45,513 nucleotides of DNA from Leptolyngbyaceae cyanobacterium (GTDB lineage Bacteria > Cyanobacteriota > Cyanobacteriia > Phormidesmidales > Phormidesmidaceae), in contig JBHJHA010000002.1 of NCBI GenBank assembly GCA_050331235.1, positions 1 through 45,513 on the forward strand, written 5' to 3'. A program made the position numbers. Positions 30,001 to 33,000 of the stretch are shown here, one piece after another (position 1 is the first letter of the stretch; each line of letters opens with the position of its first letter).

Positions 30001-33000
30001 CAAAGGCACTTACATCATTGAGTACGATGGTCAGACCTTTCGCCTCCCTGGGGCAGAGACGCTAGCGTTTTTGGCATTCATCGATGAGCAAGCGCACTTA
30101 TCCCTGCAGGCTCACGCCTAACAGGAGGAGATTGAGCAAGGGCGATCGCCCCAATTCAGAATTGCTGGAACTGTTTACTCAGAATTCGACAGCAGCAGTC
30201 TAAACTTTCGCCGATTTAGGTTTCAGGTCGGTATCACAGCACTAGGTTAGCTGCCTTGGCAACGATGGGTTATAGGACTGGAGAAAACCTACATGATGAA
30301 ACTAATGTGGATCAAGCACAGTTTGCTGGCCGCTGCGGCTCCGGCGATGGTGTTGGTCAATGCCTTGCTCCCGTTGACGGCTGGGCCCCCCCCCGTCCAG
30401 CTGCAACCGCACTCATAGGCAGAGACCTTGGTCGACTCCGAGCCCAAGACCCTCAACCAGGCCCTAAAGCAGATGCCAATGGTGCTGCCAACGGCTGCCC
30501 AGGCCAGTATCACCTGGCAAGACGGACGCTATGTTTTGGAGTTTTTTCACGCCCTCAATGCGGCGGCGCAGACCCCAGACTTGATGCTGATGTTAGATAT
30601 GGACGCGCAGCCCCAGGGCACCTACGGGCCCAGGCGCGATCGCGCAGTGATGCTGGGACCACTTCACCCCGTGGCTGGTCAGCAAAGGTACCCCATTCCG
30701 GCTGCGGTTGATGTCAATCAGTACCGCTCGGTGGCGATTTGGTGTCCTGAGCTGAATGCGGTGCTGGGATACTTGCCCGTTAGCGTGGATGGATAGCCGG
30801 TGTATCCCGTTTCTGACTTTGCTGCGGCCCGGTTGCGGCCCAATGTGGCTATTCTCCGGCGGGAGAGCTCCCAACCGCTTTCCCCAGGGGCTGATAGCCG
30901 CTTACCAACAGTAGGAGCCAGAGCGCAAATTACCCAGGGCTTACCTGTGGGGAGCGCTGCTCTACCAATGATATCGCTCCGTTGCTTGGGTTGCCGCATT
31001 GAAAGGGACATGGGTAATGTCGATTAAGCGAGTGGGCCGATGGTTAGGGGCGATCGCCCTCGGTTGGTTCCTCATCACTACCGCTGCCAGTGCTCAAGAG
31101 GCCCCCCACCGCCTGCCGGTAGTGCTCGACGGGCGATCGCTGTTTGCTGTGGGCGATTTGGATGACTTCTCCGCGAGCGAACGCGCCGACTTTGTCAATC
31201 ATGTGCTCCAGGCTCAGCTTCGCCAATTGCCGCCAGAAACGCCCATTCAAGTGACCCAACTGAAGCGGGGTGAGCTAATTACCCTGCGGGTGTCGGGGCG
31301 GCACGTATTGACAATTACTGACCAAGATTTAATGGGCAACATTCCCGCTGAGGAGCAGGCGGATCGATGGGCCGATAAGCTCCAGCAAGCTTTGCAACAA
31401 GGGAGAGCGCAGCGGACGCCAGCCTATCGTCGTCGCATCTTAATAGTGGCAGTGGGACTCGCCGTCTTAGGCTTGGGGCTCTACTTTGGCTTGCGTGGGT
31501 TGCGGCGGTGGCTGCGTCGCCATCGGCGTCGACTCTCGCCGGGGGCGCGATTTTGGACGGAAATGGGGATCTATCTGGCCCAGTGGAGCCTGCTGATTGG
31601 CTTTTTGGGATGGGTGTCCCAGGCCTTGCCAGAGCTCAGACATTGGCGCTATCGCGGACTAAACTTTCTCGGCACGACTCTGACCGCTGATGTCGTCACC
31701 CTGAGCGATCACGGCTATTCCATTCTGGAAGTCAGCAAAATTCTGCTCTTGGTGGTGCTGCTGTGGTTGGCCGTTCGGGCCATTACCGGACTCGTGCGCG
31801 CCCGTGTCCTGCAAACCGTGGGGGCAGATCCTACTGCTCAGGATGCGATCGCCCTATTCATCCAGGTTGCGCTGACTGGATTTGGCCTGTTGGTGCTCCT
31901 TCAGGCGTTTGGGGTCGACGTCAGTTCCCTGGCGATTTTGGCCAGTGTCATCGGCGTCGGTATCGGCTTTGGCCTGCAAAACATCGCCAACAATTTCATC
32001 AGCGGCTTGATCATCATGCTAGAGCGTCCTGTGCAGGTGGGAGACTTTGTTAAGCTGGGCGACCTCACGGGGACAGTCGAACGCATCGGCATTCGCAGCA
32101 CTGAAATCAGCACCCTTGATCGCATTACAATTATTGTCCCCAATTCAGAATTTATCGACAGTAAAGTCATCAACTGGAGTCACGGTTTCCCCGTTTCCCG
32201 GCTGCACATTCCCCTAGGGGTGGCCTACAGCTCGCCCATCAAACAGGTGCGCCAAGCGGTGTTCGAAGCGGCCCGGCGACATCCCAAAGTGCTGCGCTAT
32301 CCTAAGCCCCAACTCTGGTTTGAGGGGTTTGGCGACAGTTCGTTAGATTTCAACCTGCTGGTGTGGATTCGAGAACCGCGCCAGCAGTTTCGCATCCGCA
32401 GTGACCTCTACTATTTACTCGAAGCGAATCTGCGGCGTTTTCACATCGAGATTCCCTTTCCCCAGCGCGATCTCCATCTCCGCAGCGATGCTCTCGGTCT
32501 TCGCGACCCGGCATCGGCGCGACCCGCCGACCGCATCACCAGCAGTCCCGCTGTAACAGTTGATGAGGTCCAAACTTTAGAGGAGGCGATCGCCGACTGT
32601 GACATTTTGGATCACCGTGATGAGCCCGCAGAGCTTGAAATTCAAGAACTGGTAGCCCAGATGCGCGGGCCCAATGGCCTCGAAATTCGCGATCGCCGAT
32701 TTGGGCTACAGGTTTATACGCGATGTTTTGTTGGCAGCGATGCCGTGCGCTGGTTTATGCAGCGGCAGCTCGCATCCCGTGAAGAAGCCATCCGGCTGGG
32801 CCAAATTTTGGTCGAGCGAGGGATCATTCATCACGTTATCGATGAACACACCTTCAAAGATGATCATCTGTTTTATCGATTCTTTATCGACGAAGCGATC
32901 GAGCTATAACGTTTCTCAATTGAAGGCAATTAGGCCTGACTGGGATGTCTTGCAAAACAACTGATGACTGCTCCTCAAACCTCTTGAAATGAAGAAAGCT

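Follow-up and report, generated by a model that had tools for sequence, protein, structure and literature searches.

A role beyond emergency osmotic relief is assumed for MscS-like channels that carry additional domains in the cytoplasm, and only one such class, the bCNG type, has been described so far. DEP domains, for their part, are central to animal Wnt, mTOR, Rac and G-protein signalling, and the rules by which they bind are still debated. The bCNG channels are described as MscS relatives that bear a regulatory domain at the C terminus and come mostly from cyanobacteria (Caldwell 2010 and Malcolm 2012, as cited in PMC13591265), and a term search of the same 2026 review, which covers bacterial MscS-like channels, showed no mention of a DEP type (PMC13591265). 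On the eukaryotic side, the DEP domains of LYCHOS are reported to lie against the cytosolic side of the membrane domain of the same protein and to form dimers there (PMC11525196), and in EPAC1 the polybasic loop 75-RDRKYHLRLYRQ-86 of the DEP domain is given as part of the membrane-binding surface (PMC10338474).

Here we describe a cyanobacterial gene in which an MscS-type channel ends in a DEP domain. Our literature search found no published description of an MscS-DEP fusion or of any bacterial DEP channel, in agreement with the null result of the initial annotation.

Results

The gene occupies 31017..32909 on the forward strand, as do all features given below, of a window of 45,513 nucleotides, the whole stretch of DNA that was analysed (contig JBHJHA010000002.1 of a Leptolyngbyaceae cyanobacterium, assembly GCA_050331235.1). 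By ORF list, translation and Pfam it encodes an MscS-family channel of 630 aa plus stop with a C-terminal DEP domain; the reading frame is open from a TTG at 30999 to 32909, and the annotated ATG at 31017 yields the 630 residues. The product is presumably one subunit of an MscS-family heptamer, and its chain runs from a probable signal peptide through a conserved periplasmic domain, five transmembrane (TM) helices and a cytoplasmic cage to an acidic linker, an amphipathic helix and the DEP domain. The initial annotation had called it a 630-aa MscS-type channel ending in a full-length DEP domain, and this was borne out (PF00610 at residues 554-622, profile positions 1-72 of 72). Because the same three Pfam families recur in 119 of the 120 best homologues listed, among them those of [Leptolyngbya] sp. 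PCC 7376 and Synechococcus sp. PCC 7335, the fusion is not a product of chance. An assembly chimera or eukaryotic contamination was rejected as well, since the fusion is present in long, complete records: examples are the chromosome of Crocosphaera watsonii WH 8501, a Moorena bouillonii PNG5-198 record of 8.26 Mb, and the two PCC strains just named. We regard the fusion as confirmed: it is genuine and has been kept across many cyanobacteria.

The chain opens with a probable Sec signal peptide (residues 1-26, 31017..31094), read from the sequence as a basic n-region, a hydrophobic core and an A-x-A site that ends in ASA before QE; AlphaFold2 (AF2) places a helix at residues 4-22, with low confidence after it. 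It is followed by a periplasmic alpha/beta domain (residues 30-135, 31104..31421) which, when folded alone, reached an AF2 pLDDT of 93.9 and a pTM of 0.84, and in which D38, G39 and R56 are invariant across 59 family sequences. This domain had no match in Pfam, and fold searches gave no clear match either (best Foldseek hit in the PDB, E 0.43; best VIA-align wide hit, Z 4.8). Two extra N-terminal TM helices, here called TMa and TMb (approximately residues 136-158 and 184-204, 31422..31628), correspond to AF2 helices 135-168 and 175-203 and are joined by a polybasic loop. MscS channels as a rule have the N terminus outside and the C terminus inside, and by this rule the loop (residues 158-182, RRWLRRHRRRL..., 31488..31562) would be cytoplasmic; its net charge has a median of +7 and ranges from +3 to +12 in 59 family members.

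Pfam, NCBIfam and Foldseek all assign the channel core to the MscS family. AF2 helices 236-268, 272-297 and 302-335 mark TM1-TM3 (residues 236-335, 31722..32021), which include the pore helix ASVIGVGIGFGLQNIANNF, and the NCBIfam MscK and MscS models begin to align at residues 233-243. A pore-lining TM3 rich in Gly and Ala and placed directly before the beta-domain is a feature of the MscS family, and residues 308-337 (ASVIGVGIGFGLQNIANNFISGLIIMLERP) are Gly/Ala-rich in this way, with S310, G313, V314, G315, G317, G319 and L320 invariant in the 59 sequences. The beta-domain itself (PF00924, MS_channel_2nd; residues 322-389, 31980..32183) scored 80.5 bits against a cut-off of 20.2, with the same coordinates in a genome search, and the C-terminal alpha/beta domain (PF21082, MS_channel_3rd; residues 399-479, 32211..32453) scored 68.1 bits against a cut-off of 21. 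Foldseek returned 67 matches to the channel at E<=1e-3, of which the 48 listed are all MscS-family channels, the best being E. coli MscK (7ux1_A; E 3.2e-20, 30% identity over 358 columns). An identity as MscK proper was rejected: the NCBIfam equivalog model NF008438 scored 215 bits against a cut-off of 991 and aligned residues 237-491 to positions 837-1091 of its 1113. A bCNG identity was likewise discarded, the protein having no match to PF00027 at E<=0.01. The genome holds 15 PF00924 matches, and the protein is one of about 15 MscS paralogues there, one of which (L143) is of the bCNG type with PF00027 and another of which has the same body as the present protein, with 38% identity over residues 3-503, and no DEP domain.

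Between the cage and the DEP domain lies a disordered, acidic linker rich in Pro, Ser and Thr (residues 491-519, 32487..32573), delimited by AF2 and by conservation. The AF2 pLDDT is below 50 across residues 482-519, and the net charge summed over residues 491-539 is -6 at the median of the family. Mean column conservation is 0.25 in the linker, as against 0.80 in the cage and 0.74 in the DEP domain, and the same division is seen in dN to four close homologues, which was used alone because dS is saturated: 1.0-2.8 in the linker, 0.08-0.12 in the core and 0.10-0.21 in the pre-DEP helix alpha0 and the DEP domain together. The spacer from the cage to the start of the DEP profile measures 37-129 aa in 133 of 134 sequences, with a median of 52, the lone exception being a family member (P0081) with a spacer of 9 aa. 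Directly before the DEP domain, the alignment and AF2 delimit an amphipathic helix that we call alpha0 (residues 520-533, 32574..32615; AF2 helix at 521-527). It forms an ungapped block in which positions 521, 524, 527, 530 and 531 are hydrophobic in 88-98% of the 59 sequences, and a comparison by eye saw no such helix in the short DEP proteins, which suggests that alpha0 is specific to MscS-DEP proteins. Since the spacer is poorly conserved and disordered in the AlphaFold model, and is followed by a conserved helix, the DEP domain comes out as a module on a tether rather than a rigid plug. The structural part of the initial annotation, a canonical DEP domain under strong selection behind the cytoplasmic cage, therefore stands, while its proposal of a gate appended to the vestibule gains no support, given the disordered linker and conserved helix that lie between.

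The DEP domain (residues 539-630, 32631..32906, from Pfam, phmmer and AF2) matches PF00610 over the whole profile at residues 554-622 (32676-32882), with E 5.1e-22 and 78 bits against a cut-off of 32.7; the value given in the initial annotation (E 1.7e-22, 77 bits) is the same result. A six-frame search of the genome scored the same stretch at 82.8 bits and found exactly one DEP match in total. Against solved structures, phmmer with the last 100 aa gave P-Rex1 at 3.9e-28 and DEPTOR at 7.7e-28, values that sum two DEP domains (the best single domain, P-Rex1 DEP1, has 57.9 bits), followed by Epac2 (2.2e-14), Iml1 (4.6e-12), GPR155 (7e-11), DVL2 (7.2e-7) and RGS7 (2.5e-6). The list of 42 PDB sequences at E<=1e-3 that had been reported before was reproduced, but nine of these are pentatricopeptide or designer-PPR chains without a qualifying stretch and are spurious, which leaves 33 solved DEP chains (P-Rex1, DEPTOR, Epac, Iml1, GPR155, DVL and RGS7/9).

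The DEP domain of Dishevelled consists of a helix, a beta-hairpin arm, two helices and two short strands. The AF2 model of the present domain agrees with the sequence of helix, beta-hairpin, two helices and two strands (DSSP helices 539-550, 573-583 and 588-600; strands 558-562, 565-572, 604-606 and 619-622; pLDDT 83-93), and an ESM Atlas model offers, as a lead, TM-scores of 0.79-0.83 to the DEPTOR, RGS7 and Iml1 clusters. Across 59 sequences, which reach down to 45% overall identity, the stretch from residue 545 to residue 625 has fourteen columns without any variation. The hairpin (residues 556-570, EIRDRRFGLQVYTRC, 32682..32726) is basic by the charge count of the family: R560 and R561 are basic in 97-100% of the 59 sequences, and the hairpin has four basic residues here (RDRRFGLQVYTR), with a family median of 4 and a range of 1-6. 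Its position is that of the EPAC1 polybasic loop, as located in PMC10338474.

In the phylum, DEP scored above the cut-off in 31 of 401 sampled genomes, with matches in 25 of 155 genera; it was absent from 14 named control genomes, E. coli among them. The initial annotation had left open whether the other bacterial DEP proteins are MscS fusions too, and in cyanobacteria they often are not: among 30 cyanobacterial DEP genes scanned, 13 encode MscS-DEP proteins and 17 are of other types, namely 14 short DEP-only proteins, two kinase-DEP proteins and one DEP-SnoaL protein. The other carriers are Ser/Thr kinases (L012, L019), a SnoaL-like protein (L015) and a small unknown domain (14 loci), and DEP in cyanobacteria is not tied to MscS. 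Among longer proteins, word searches with the DEP region gave no match, and among shorter ones they gave eight, mostly fragments. Further afield, a "Crocinitomicaceae" MAG is the sole DEP carrier among 61 genomes of its family, which points to contamination or recent transfer. A MAG titled "Chloroflexaceae" bears an unreliable title, since a phylum search centred on it drew the same sample of genomes as the phylum search for the window itself. As a further lead, the ESM Atlas showed bacterial clusters that join DEP to EAL. A synteny comparison with one same-genus and one same-family genome showed no DEP gene and no shared position; it matched flanking genes and MscS paralogues only.

In a DEP tree that is unrooted, short (90 columns) and unresolved at 63 of 106 inner branches, the AU test did not reject one clade for 43 cyanobacterial against 42 eukaryote-marked DEPs (p 0.95), nor a single MscS-DEP clade (p 0.41). 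In the free tree the P-Rex, DEPTOR and RapGAP-type DEPs fell inside the cyanobacterial cluster, and a reading in which cyanobacterial DEPs are nested within P-Rex-type DEPs was dropped because the constrained tree is better than the free one. Mean identity is 47.5% among cyanobacterial DEPs as against 28.4% among eukaryotic ones.

Discussion

We suggest that the DEP domain of this channel is a regulatory docking domain that lies outside the pore, and that DEP entered the cyanobacteria once and was then shuffled onto several proteins. As a whole, we give this explanation a probability of roughly 0.4. As to origin, the patchy distribution, the single clade and the low diversity relative to eukaryotic DEPs fit one later entry followed by domain shuffling onto MscS channels, Ser/Thr kinases, SnoaL-like proteins and the small unknown domain, which we consider the most likely course of events. 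The initial annotation took the concentration of DEP in cyanobacteria as a sign that the domain arose in bacteria or reached them early. Our data lend this no support: the distribution is patchy (31 of 401 genomes), the cyanobacterial DEPs behave as one compact clade of low diversity, and the tree, being unrooted and weakly resolved, speaks for neither direction of transfer.

As to function, seven tethered DEP domains probably dock back, either on the inner side of the membrane or on the channel, and so tune one paralogue among many. They would hang below the cage on flexible acidic tethers, each with its alpha0, and would extend back as far as the membrane's inner face, a distance from the bottom of the cage that we infer from geometry to lie within the range of the tether. 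There, the conserved basic hairpin (R558, R560, R561, R569) would bind anionic lipids; an alternative or additional target would be the channel's own strongly basic TMa-TMb loop. Docking would determine at what tension the MscS-DEP paralogue opens, how fast it does so or where it is located, comparable to the modifying role ascribed to the C-terminal cyclic-nucleotide domain in bCNG channels. As precedents we take the membrane-binding loop of EPAC1 (PMC10338474), the LYCHOS DEP domains (PMC11525196) and the bCNG channels themselves (PMC13591265). The charges offer candidate docking surfaces, with the basic hairpin and TMa-TMb loop on one side and the acidic linker (median -6) and DEP domain (median -3) on the other; since the net charge of the whole DEP domain is negative, the hairpin by itself may bind lipids weakly. 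The basic residues of the hairpin, moreover, are those of the DEP consensus at large and are unspecific as evidence for a docking role. A complex prediction with two copies of residues 135-490 and the DEP region 535-630 scored 0.00 and gives no verdict either way. We count two further observations in favour of docking. An obligatory partner is not apparent, as there is no conserved neighbour gene and only a single DEP in the genome, and the protein appears to be a specialised paralogue in a genome with 15 PF00924 matches, one of them of the bCNG type and one a DEP-less copy.

The DEP domains of RGS proteins and Dishevelled dock onto receptors, and the present one might by analogy be an adaptor for a soluble or membrane-bound partner, for instance a kinase, a small regulatory protein or a second protein with DEP. 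With such a partner recruited to it, the channel would serve as a signalling scaffold or be gated by the partner. The occurrence of the same DEP type on Ser/Thr kinases, on a SnoaL-like protein and on a small unknown domain is the spread typical of an interaction or targeting module, and the surface residues D609, E610, D615, D625 and E626 are near-invariant. We nevertheless hold an adaptor role to be somewhat unlikely. No partner candidate emerged: the host genome has a single DEP, and no gene is conserved next to the fusion, the best flanking family occurring in 12 of 81 loci (two large neighbour "families" proved to be antisense shadow ORFs inside the MscS-DEP gene itself). Among 14 sampled genomes with an MscS-type DEP, moreover, only one (G214, whose MscS frame was judged by length) has a second DEP architecture, and a DEP-DEP hetero-partnership is therefore not general.

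Alternatively, the DEP domains could bind one another, forming a ring or cap under the cage within the heptamer or clustering neighbouring channels. Tandem DEPs pack against each other in DEPTOR and P-Rex, and a heptamer would hold seven DEP domains at high local concentration; the dimerisation described for LYCHOS (PMC11525196) also points this way. The closest relatives in a library of 1.84 billion proteins are mostly proteins with two to seven tandem DEPs, although HMMER adds up the scores of repeated domains, which accounts in part for their high rank. The long disordered tether speaks against a fixed cap, and we judge self-binding to be rather improbable.

A bolder version of the uptake scenario is that cyanobacteria took up DEP once from a eukaryote and made of it a toolkit of their own (channel, Ser/Thr kinase, SnoaL-like protein and small adaptor), in which the tethered DEPs sense the condition of a membrane surface, so that a valve for tension becomes a channel gated by a signal. 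The quantity sensed could then be anionic lipid content, surface charge or a nearby thylakoid, the channel in the last case serving as a tether between two membranes. We think this a long shot, yet if it were true, the channel would be the simplest known system for finding out what DEP domains sense. That the DEP domain is a neutral passenger of a past gene fusion, with no role in the channel, is extremely improbable, for all but one of the 120 best homologues listed retain the domain, and it has 14 invariant columns and shows a dN as low as that of the channel core.

A bacterial DEP channel whose activity has an electrical read-out, in a genome that also encodes a natural paralogue without DEP, would offer a simple test bed for DEP binding. 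The presence on at least four different cyanobacterial proteins of a domain that behaves as one clade also bears on how "eukaryotic" signalling modules move between the domains of life.

Comparison with known systems

The bCNG channels are a close parallel: like the MscS-DEP protein, they join an MscS-type core to an extra cytoplasmic signalling domain after the cage, occur mostly in cyanobacteria, lack a solved structure and probably act as specialised paralogues rather than as emergency valves, as far as PMC13591265 describes them. They differ in that the added domain binds cyclic nucleotides, whereas the MscS-DEP protein has a DEP domain, a periplasmic N-terminal domain and two extra TM helices. 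Among MscS relatives, E. coli MscK is the best structural and profile match to the core, and YnaI shares the extra N-terminal TM helices, with five in all. The MscK model is far longer (1113 positions against 630 aa), and from both proteins the MscS-DEP channel is set apart by its small periplasmic domain of unrecognised fold and its C-terminal DEP.

Among DEP proteins, P-Rex1, DEPTOR and EPAC are the closest in sequence of those solved, sharing the hairpin motif and the IHHV..D.H.F.D..LFYRF core, but they are soluble proteins that use DEP for membrane recruitment or autoinhibition, whereas the MscS-DEP protein carries it on a chain that is already in the membrane. LYCHOS/GPR155 is likewise an integral membrane protein with a C-terminal DEP, described as making oligomer contacts (PMC11525196), and it matches the present DEP at E 7e-11. 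Its membrane part is unrelated, however, being a PIN-like transporter joined to a GPCR in a dimeric, eukaryotic and lysosomal protein, and its DEP is attached through a short, ordered link, in contrast to the long, disordered tether of the cyanobacterial channel.

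Architecture of the channel

The gene under study occupies a plus-strand frame open from 30999 to 32909, in which the ATG at 31017 yields a protein of 630 aa. Pfam confirms the initial annotation of an MscS-type channel with a full-length C-terminal DEP domain: MS_channel_2nd (PF00924) matches residues 322-389 at 80.5 bits, MS_channel_3rd (PF21082) residues 399-479 at 68.1 bits, and DEP (PF00610) residues 554-622 over profile positions 1-72 of 72 (E 5.1e-22, 78 bits, cut-off 32.7). The NCBIfam models for MscK, MscM and MscS align to residues 233-493, each scoring far under its own equivalog cut-off (for MscK, 215 bits vs 991). 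The previously listed 42 PDB matches were reproduced with phmmer and the last 100 residues, but only 33 are true DEP chains, because nine are PPR or designer-PPR chains without a qualifying stretch; the very low E-values of P-Rex and DEPTOR each combine two DEP domains, the best single domain scoring 57.9 bits.

An AlphaFold2 model using 59 homologues (mean pLDDT 77), read together with the alignment, gives the predicted order of parts. A probable signal peptide (residues 1-26, read from the sequence) is followed by a confidently modelled alpha/beta domain in the periplasm (residues 30-135). Next come two additional TM helices (TMa and TMb) with a polybasic loop between them on the cytoplasmic side, the helices TM1-TM3 of MscS with the invariant pore motif GVGxGFGL, and the cytoplasmic MscS cage. 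Beyond the cage lie a linker with pLDDT below 50 (residues 482-519), a short helix (residues 521-527) and the DEP domain (residues 539-630, pLDDT 83-93), whose order of helix, hairpin, helix, helix, strand and strand is as expected. Solved MscS-family channels match the model in Foldseek, the best being E. coli MscK (E 3.2e-20), then YnaI and MscS. Folded alone, the periplasmic domain (window 31104-31421) reaches a pLDDT of 93.9 and a pTM of 0.84; it matched no Pfam family, and nothing in the PDB resembled it clearly (at best E 0.43 in Foldseek and Z 4.8 in VIA-align). The domain is common to two paralogues in the same genome, L142 and L147.

Paralogues and genomic context

The genome contains exactly one DEP match and 15 matches to PF00924. 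The paralogue L142, 38% identical over residues 3-503, terminates just past the cage and lacks a DEP domain; L143 (contig C19), one of 13 other MscS-family ORFs scanned, is of the bCNG type and carries a cNMP-binding domain, besides which no other C-terminal Pfam domain was found in those 13. The DEP channel is therefore one specialised member of a large MscS set. One of the 15 matches, on contig C107, contains internal stops.

No neighbouring gene is conserved across 81 loci, the best flanking family occurring in 12. In the window, a BcsA-like glycosyltransferase and a small DM13 ORF lie 5' of the gene and a peptide-export cluster 3', both unrelated to the channel. The DM13 ORF (30428-30796, plus strand), just 5' of the gene, is beside the channel in 6 of the 81 loci. 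On the 3' side, a minus-strand gene (33241-33519) encodes a 92-aa peptide in which two motifs, ..ENVSGGV.. and ..LEGVSGGV.., resemble double-glycine leaders; after each of them come repeats of (D/N)FDQLRRENLDKDA. The four plus-strand genes beside it (33785-40786) encode, in order, a protein with two cNMP-binding stretches, a 192-aa ORF without a Pfam match, a C39-peptidase ABC exporter and a second ABC transporter, and the five genes together resemble a cyanobacterial cluster for exporting double-glycine peptides, its presumed substrate being built of repeats. We also note an AAA-like domain (AAA_35) in two adjacent, slightly overlapping plus-strand genes (24083-25489, a strong match of 431 bits, and 25434-26912, a weak one of 87 bits), and a bacterial bestrophin homologue (40806-41762, minus strand; Bestrophin_2, 339 bits), which adds another putative ion channel to the window.

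Conservation of the fusion

MscS-DEP is a real, conserved and so far undescribed variant of MscS-like channels. All three domains (PF00610, PF00924 and PF21082) are present in 119 of the 120 best homologues listed, the sole exception (P0046, 534 aa) coming from a contig of 2 kb, and those sources that carry names are cyanobacteria throughout, the cultured PCC 7376 and PCC 7335 included. Mean column conservation falls from 0.80 in the cage through 0.74 in the DEP domain, 0.69 in TM1-TM3 and 0.58 in the periplasmic domain to 0.46 in alpha0, a short amphipathic helix before the DEP domain, and 0.25 in the linker. Against four close homologues, dN reaches 1.0-2.8 in the linker, compared with 0.10-0.21 in alpha0 plus DEP and 0.08-0.12 in the core; dS is saturated. 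The fusion is thus conserved and under selection, which speaks strongly against the rival reading of the DEP domain as a neutral passenger.

Residues 520-531 align without gaps, positions 521, 524, 527, 530 and 531 being hydrophobic in 88-98% of sequences; by eye, no such amphipathic helix was seen in other cyanobacterial DEP proteins. The spacer from the end of the cage profile to the start of our own DEP profile measures 37-129 aa (median 52) in 133 of 134 sequences, with one outlier at 9 aa; the set comprises the 59 aligned homologues and 75 loci, duplicates kept.

Literature searches, with subscription-only papers outside their scope, showed no paper on a bacterial DEP channel among those listed (titles and abstract starts) and returned nothing on DEP domains in prokaryotes, the winged helix and evolution. 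No DEP type came up in the available text of a review from 2026 that covers bacterial MscS-like channels, where 'dep' occurs just within ordinary words like 'depend' (PMC13591265).

Distribution of DEP in cyanobacteria

Across the cyanobacteria, the DEP domain is a mobile module. With Pfam, DEP was matched in 32 of 401 genomes sampled from the phylum, and in 25 of 155 genera; 31 of the 32 genomes are over the cut-off, with 41 such matches in all. It had been left open whether other bacterial DEP proteins are MscS fusions; at 30 loci from this sample, the window's own included, whose ORFs we scanned with Pfam, 13 are MscS-DEP and 17 have other architectures. DEP is the sole Pfam match in short proteins of 72-212 aa at 14 loci, follows a Ser/Thr kinase domain at two (L012:1207-3015(-) and L019:493-1974(+)), and precedes a C-terminal SnoaL_2 domain at one (L015). 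Most short proteins share one N-terminal region of ~100 aa without a Pfam match, three share another, and one is a fragment. The first type, of 150-210 aa, starts with MLL..AEQV.YCQV ahead of the DEP domain (L002, L005, L007, L010, L011, L013, L014, L018, L024 and L030, and also L015), and the second with MFEE.N.Q.K (L020, L022 and L023).

Eleven further matches had no locus: frames of 712, 690, 643 and 641 aa are MscS-like by length alone, a 296-aa frame is listed twice (tandem DEP), and the others span 132-214 aa. A second DEP architecture beside an MscS-type frame was found in one of 14 genomes (G214), where the MscS frame is judged by length alone. Short DEP proteins rarely occur in the same genome as MscS-DEP. 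Relatives of the channel's DEP are encoded at 372 loci of a species-level genome collection; for 75 of the best 80, our own HMM found that the ORF also holds an MscS core, and the ranking favours query-like DEPs.

Record titles of DEP loci are cyanobacterial nearly throughout, with two exceptions. The 'Chloroflexaceae bacterium' MAG (L080, identical to G401) sorts with the window's own phylum, the phylum sample drawn for it being identical to the window's, so its public label looks wrong, and the 'Crocinitomicaceae' MAG is unconvincing as a carrier, DEP being found in 1 of 61 genomes of that family. As candidates beyond the phylum, the ESM Atlas has bacterial clusters under the label Pseudomonadota, some of DEP+EAL and some of DEP alone.

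Origin of the domain

At E<=1e-3, a full HMMER search with the last 100 aa against 1.84 billion representatives returned 3365 clusters, of which 1227 also pass E<=1e-10; proteins with 2-7 DEP domains make up most of the top 150. Pfam, run on 149 of these, shows partners of eukaryote type (PI-PLC, RasGEF, RGS, RhoGEF-PH-PDZ, RapGAP-LIM, 7tm_3, LRR-COR-kinase, C2 and PI3/4-kinase), while P0072, the last of the 150, has the MscS-DEP architecture; eukaryotic source names were attached to 3 of the 20 top-150 proteins looked up (Chrysoparadoxa, EukProt, MMETSP). Among clusters P0121-P0269 are many metagenome or protist proteins with 2-7 tandem DEPs; some carry an AAA_16 (STAND-type) ATPase (P0125, P0128, P0130, P0182), others 7tm_3, PI-PLC, RGS, RasGEF or Roco-type parts.

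Our DEP tree comprised 111 domains: 43 cyanobacterial (23 MscS-DEP and 20 of other architectures), 42 eukaryotic from 13 proteins, marked by partner domains or source names, and 26 of unknown origin from nine proteins. It omits L022 (which nearly duplicates L020), L027 (a fragment), L098, 65 of 75 MscS loci and any domain that spans <60 of the profile's 89 positions. Unrooted and weakly resolved, it leaves 63 of 106 inner branches open. Holding the 43 cyanobacterial rows together against the 42 eukaryotic ones gained 57 log-likelihood units over a free quick search (p-AU 0.95), and forcing the 23 MscS-DEP rows into one group apart from the 20 other cyanobacterial rows cost 4.2 (p-AU 0.41); a single entry into cyanobacteria and a single MscS fusion are thus both compatible with the data.

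The proposal in the initial annotation that DEP arose in, or early reached, bacteria is unsupported. On average, cyanobacterial DEPs share 47.5% pairwise identity and eukaryotic ones, a sample biased to query-like DEPs, 28.4%; the mean between groups is 31.8%. A compact and patchy bacterial group (31 of 401 genomes) beside a far more diverse eukaryotic family argues against a bacterial cradle, although the tree is rootless and rates may differ.

Proposed role of the DEP domain

DEP domains have been described as membrane-docking modules. Across the 59 family members, the hairpin equivalent to that of EPAC1 (558-RDRRFGLQVYTR-569) carries a median of four basic residues, R560/R561 being near-invariant, and the median net charge is -3 for the rest of the DEP domain, -6 for the linker and +7 for the cytoplasmic TMa-TMb loop. 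We suggest that DEP would act as a tethered regulatory module, docking on anionic lipids, on the basic collar of the channel itself, or on the two together, and that this docking may tune the gating or the placement of the channel. The reading of DEP as a putative gate, set on the channel's vestibule, is plausible. Rival readings would have the DEP domain recruit a partner, or associate with a second DEP.

Two characterised systems offer precedents. The polybasic hairpin loop of EPAC1 (75-RDRKYHLRLYRQ-86) lies within the membrane-binding face, the isolated DEP alone being without binding (PMC10338474), and the C-terminal DEPs of LYCHOS dimerise on the cytosolic face of that protein's own membrane part (PMC11525196). 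By analogy with EPAC1 and LYCHOS, and with a basic hairpin and a basic TMa-TMb loop in the channel itself, a tethered regulatory docking module is the reading that we favour over its rivals.
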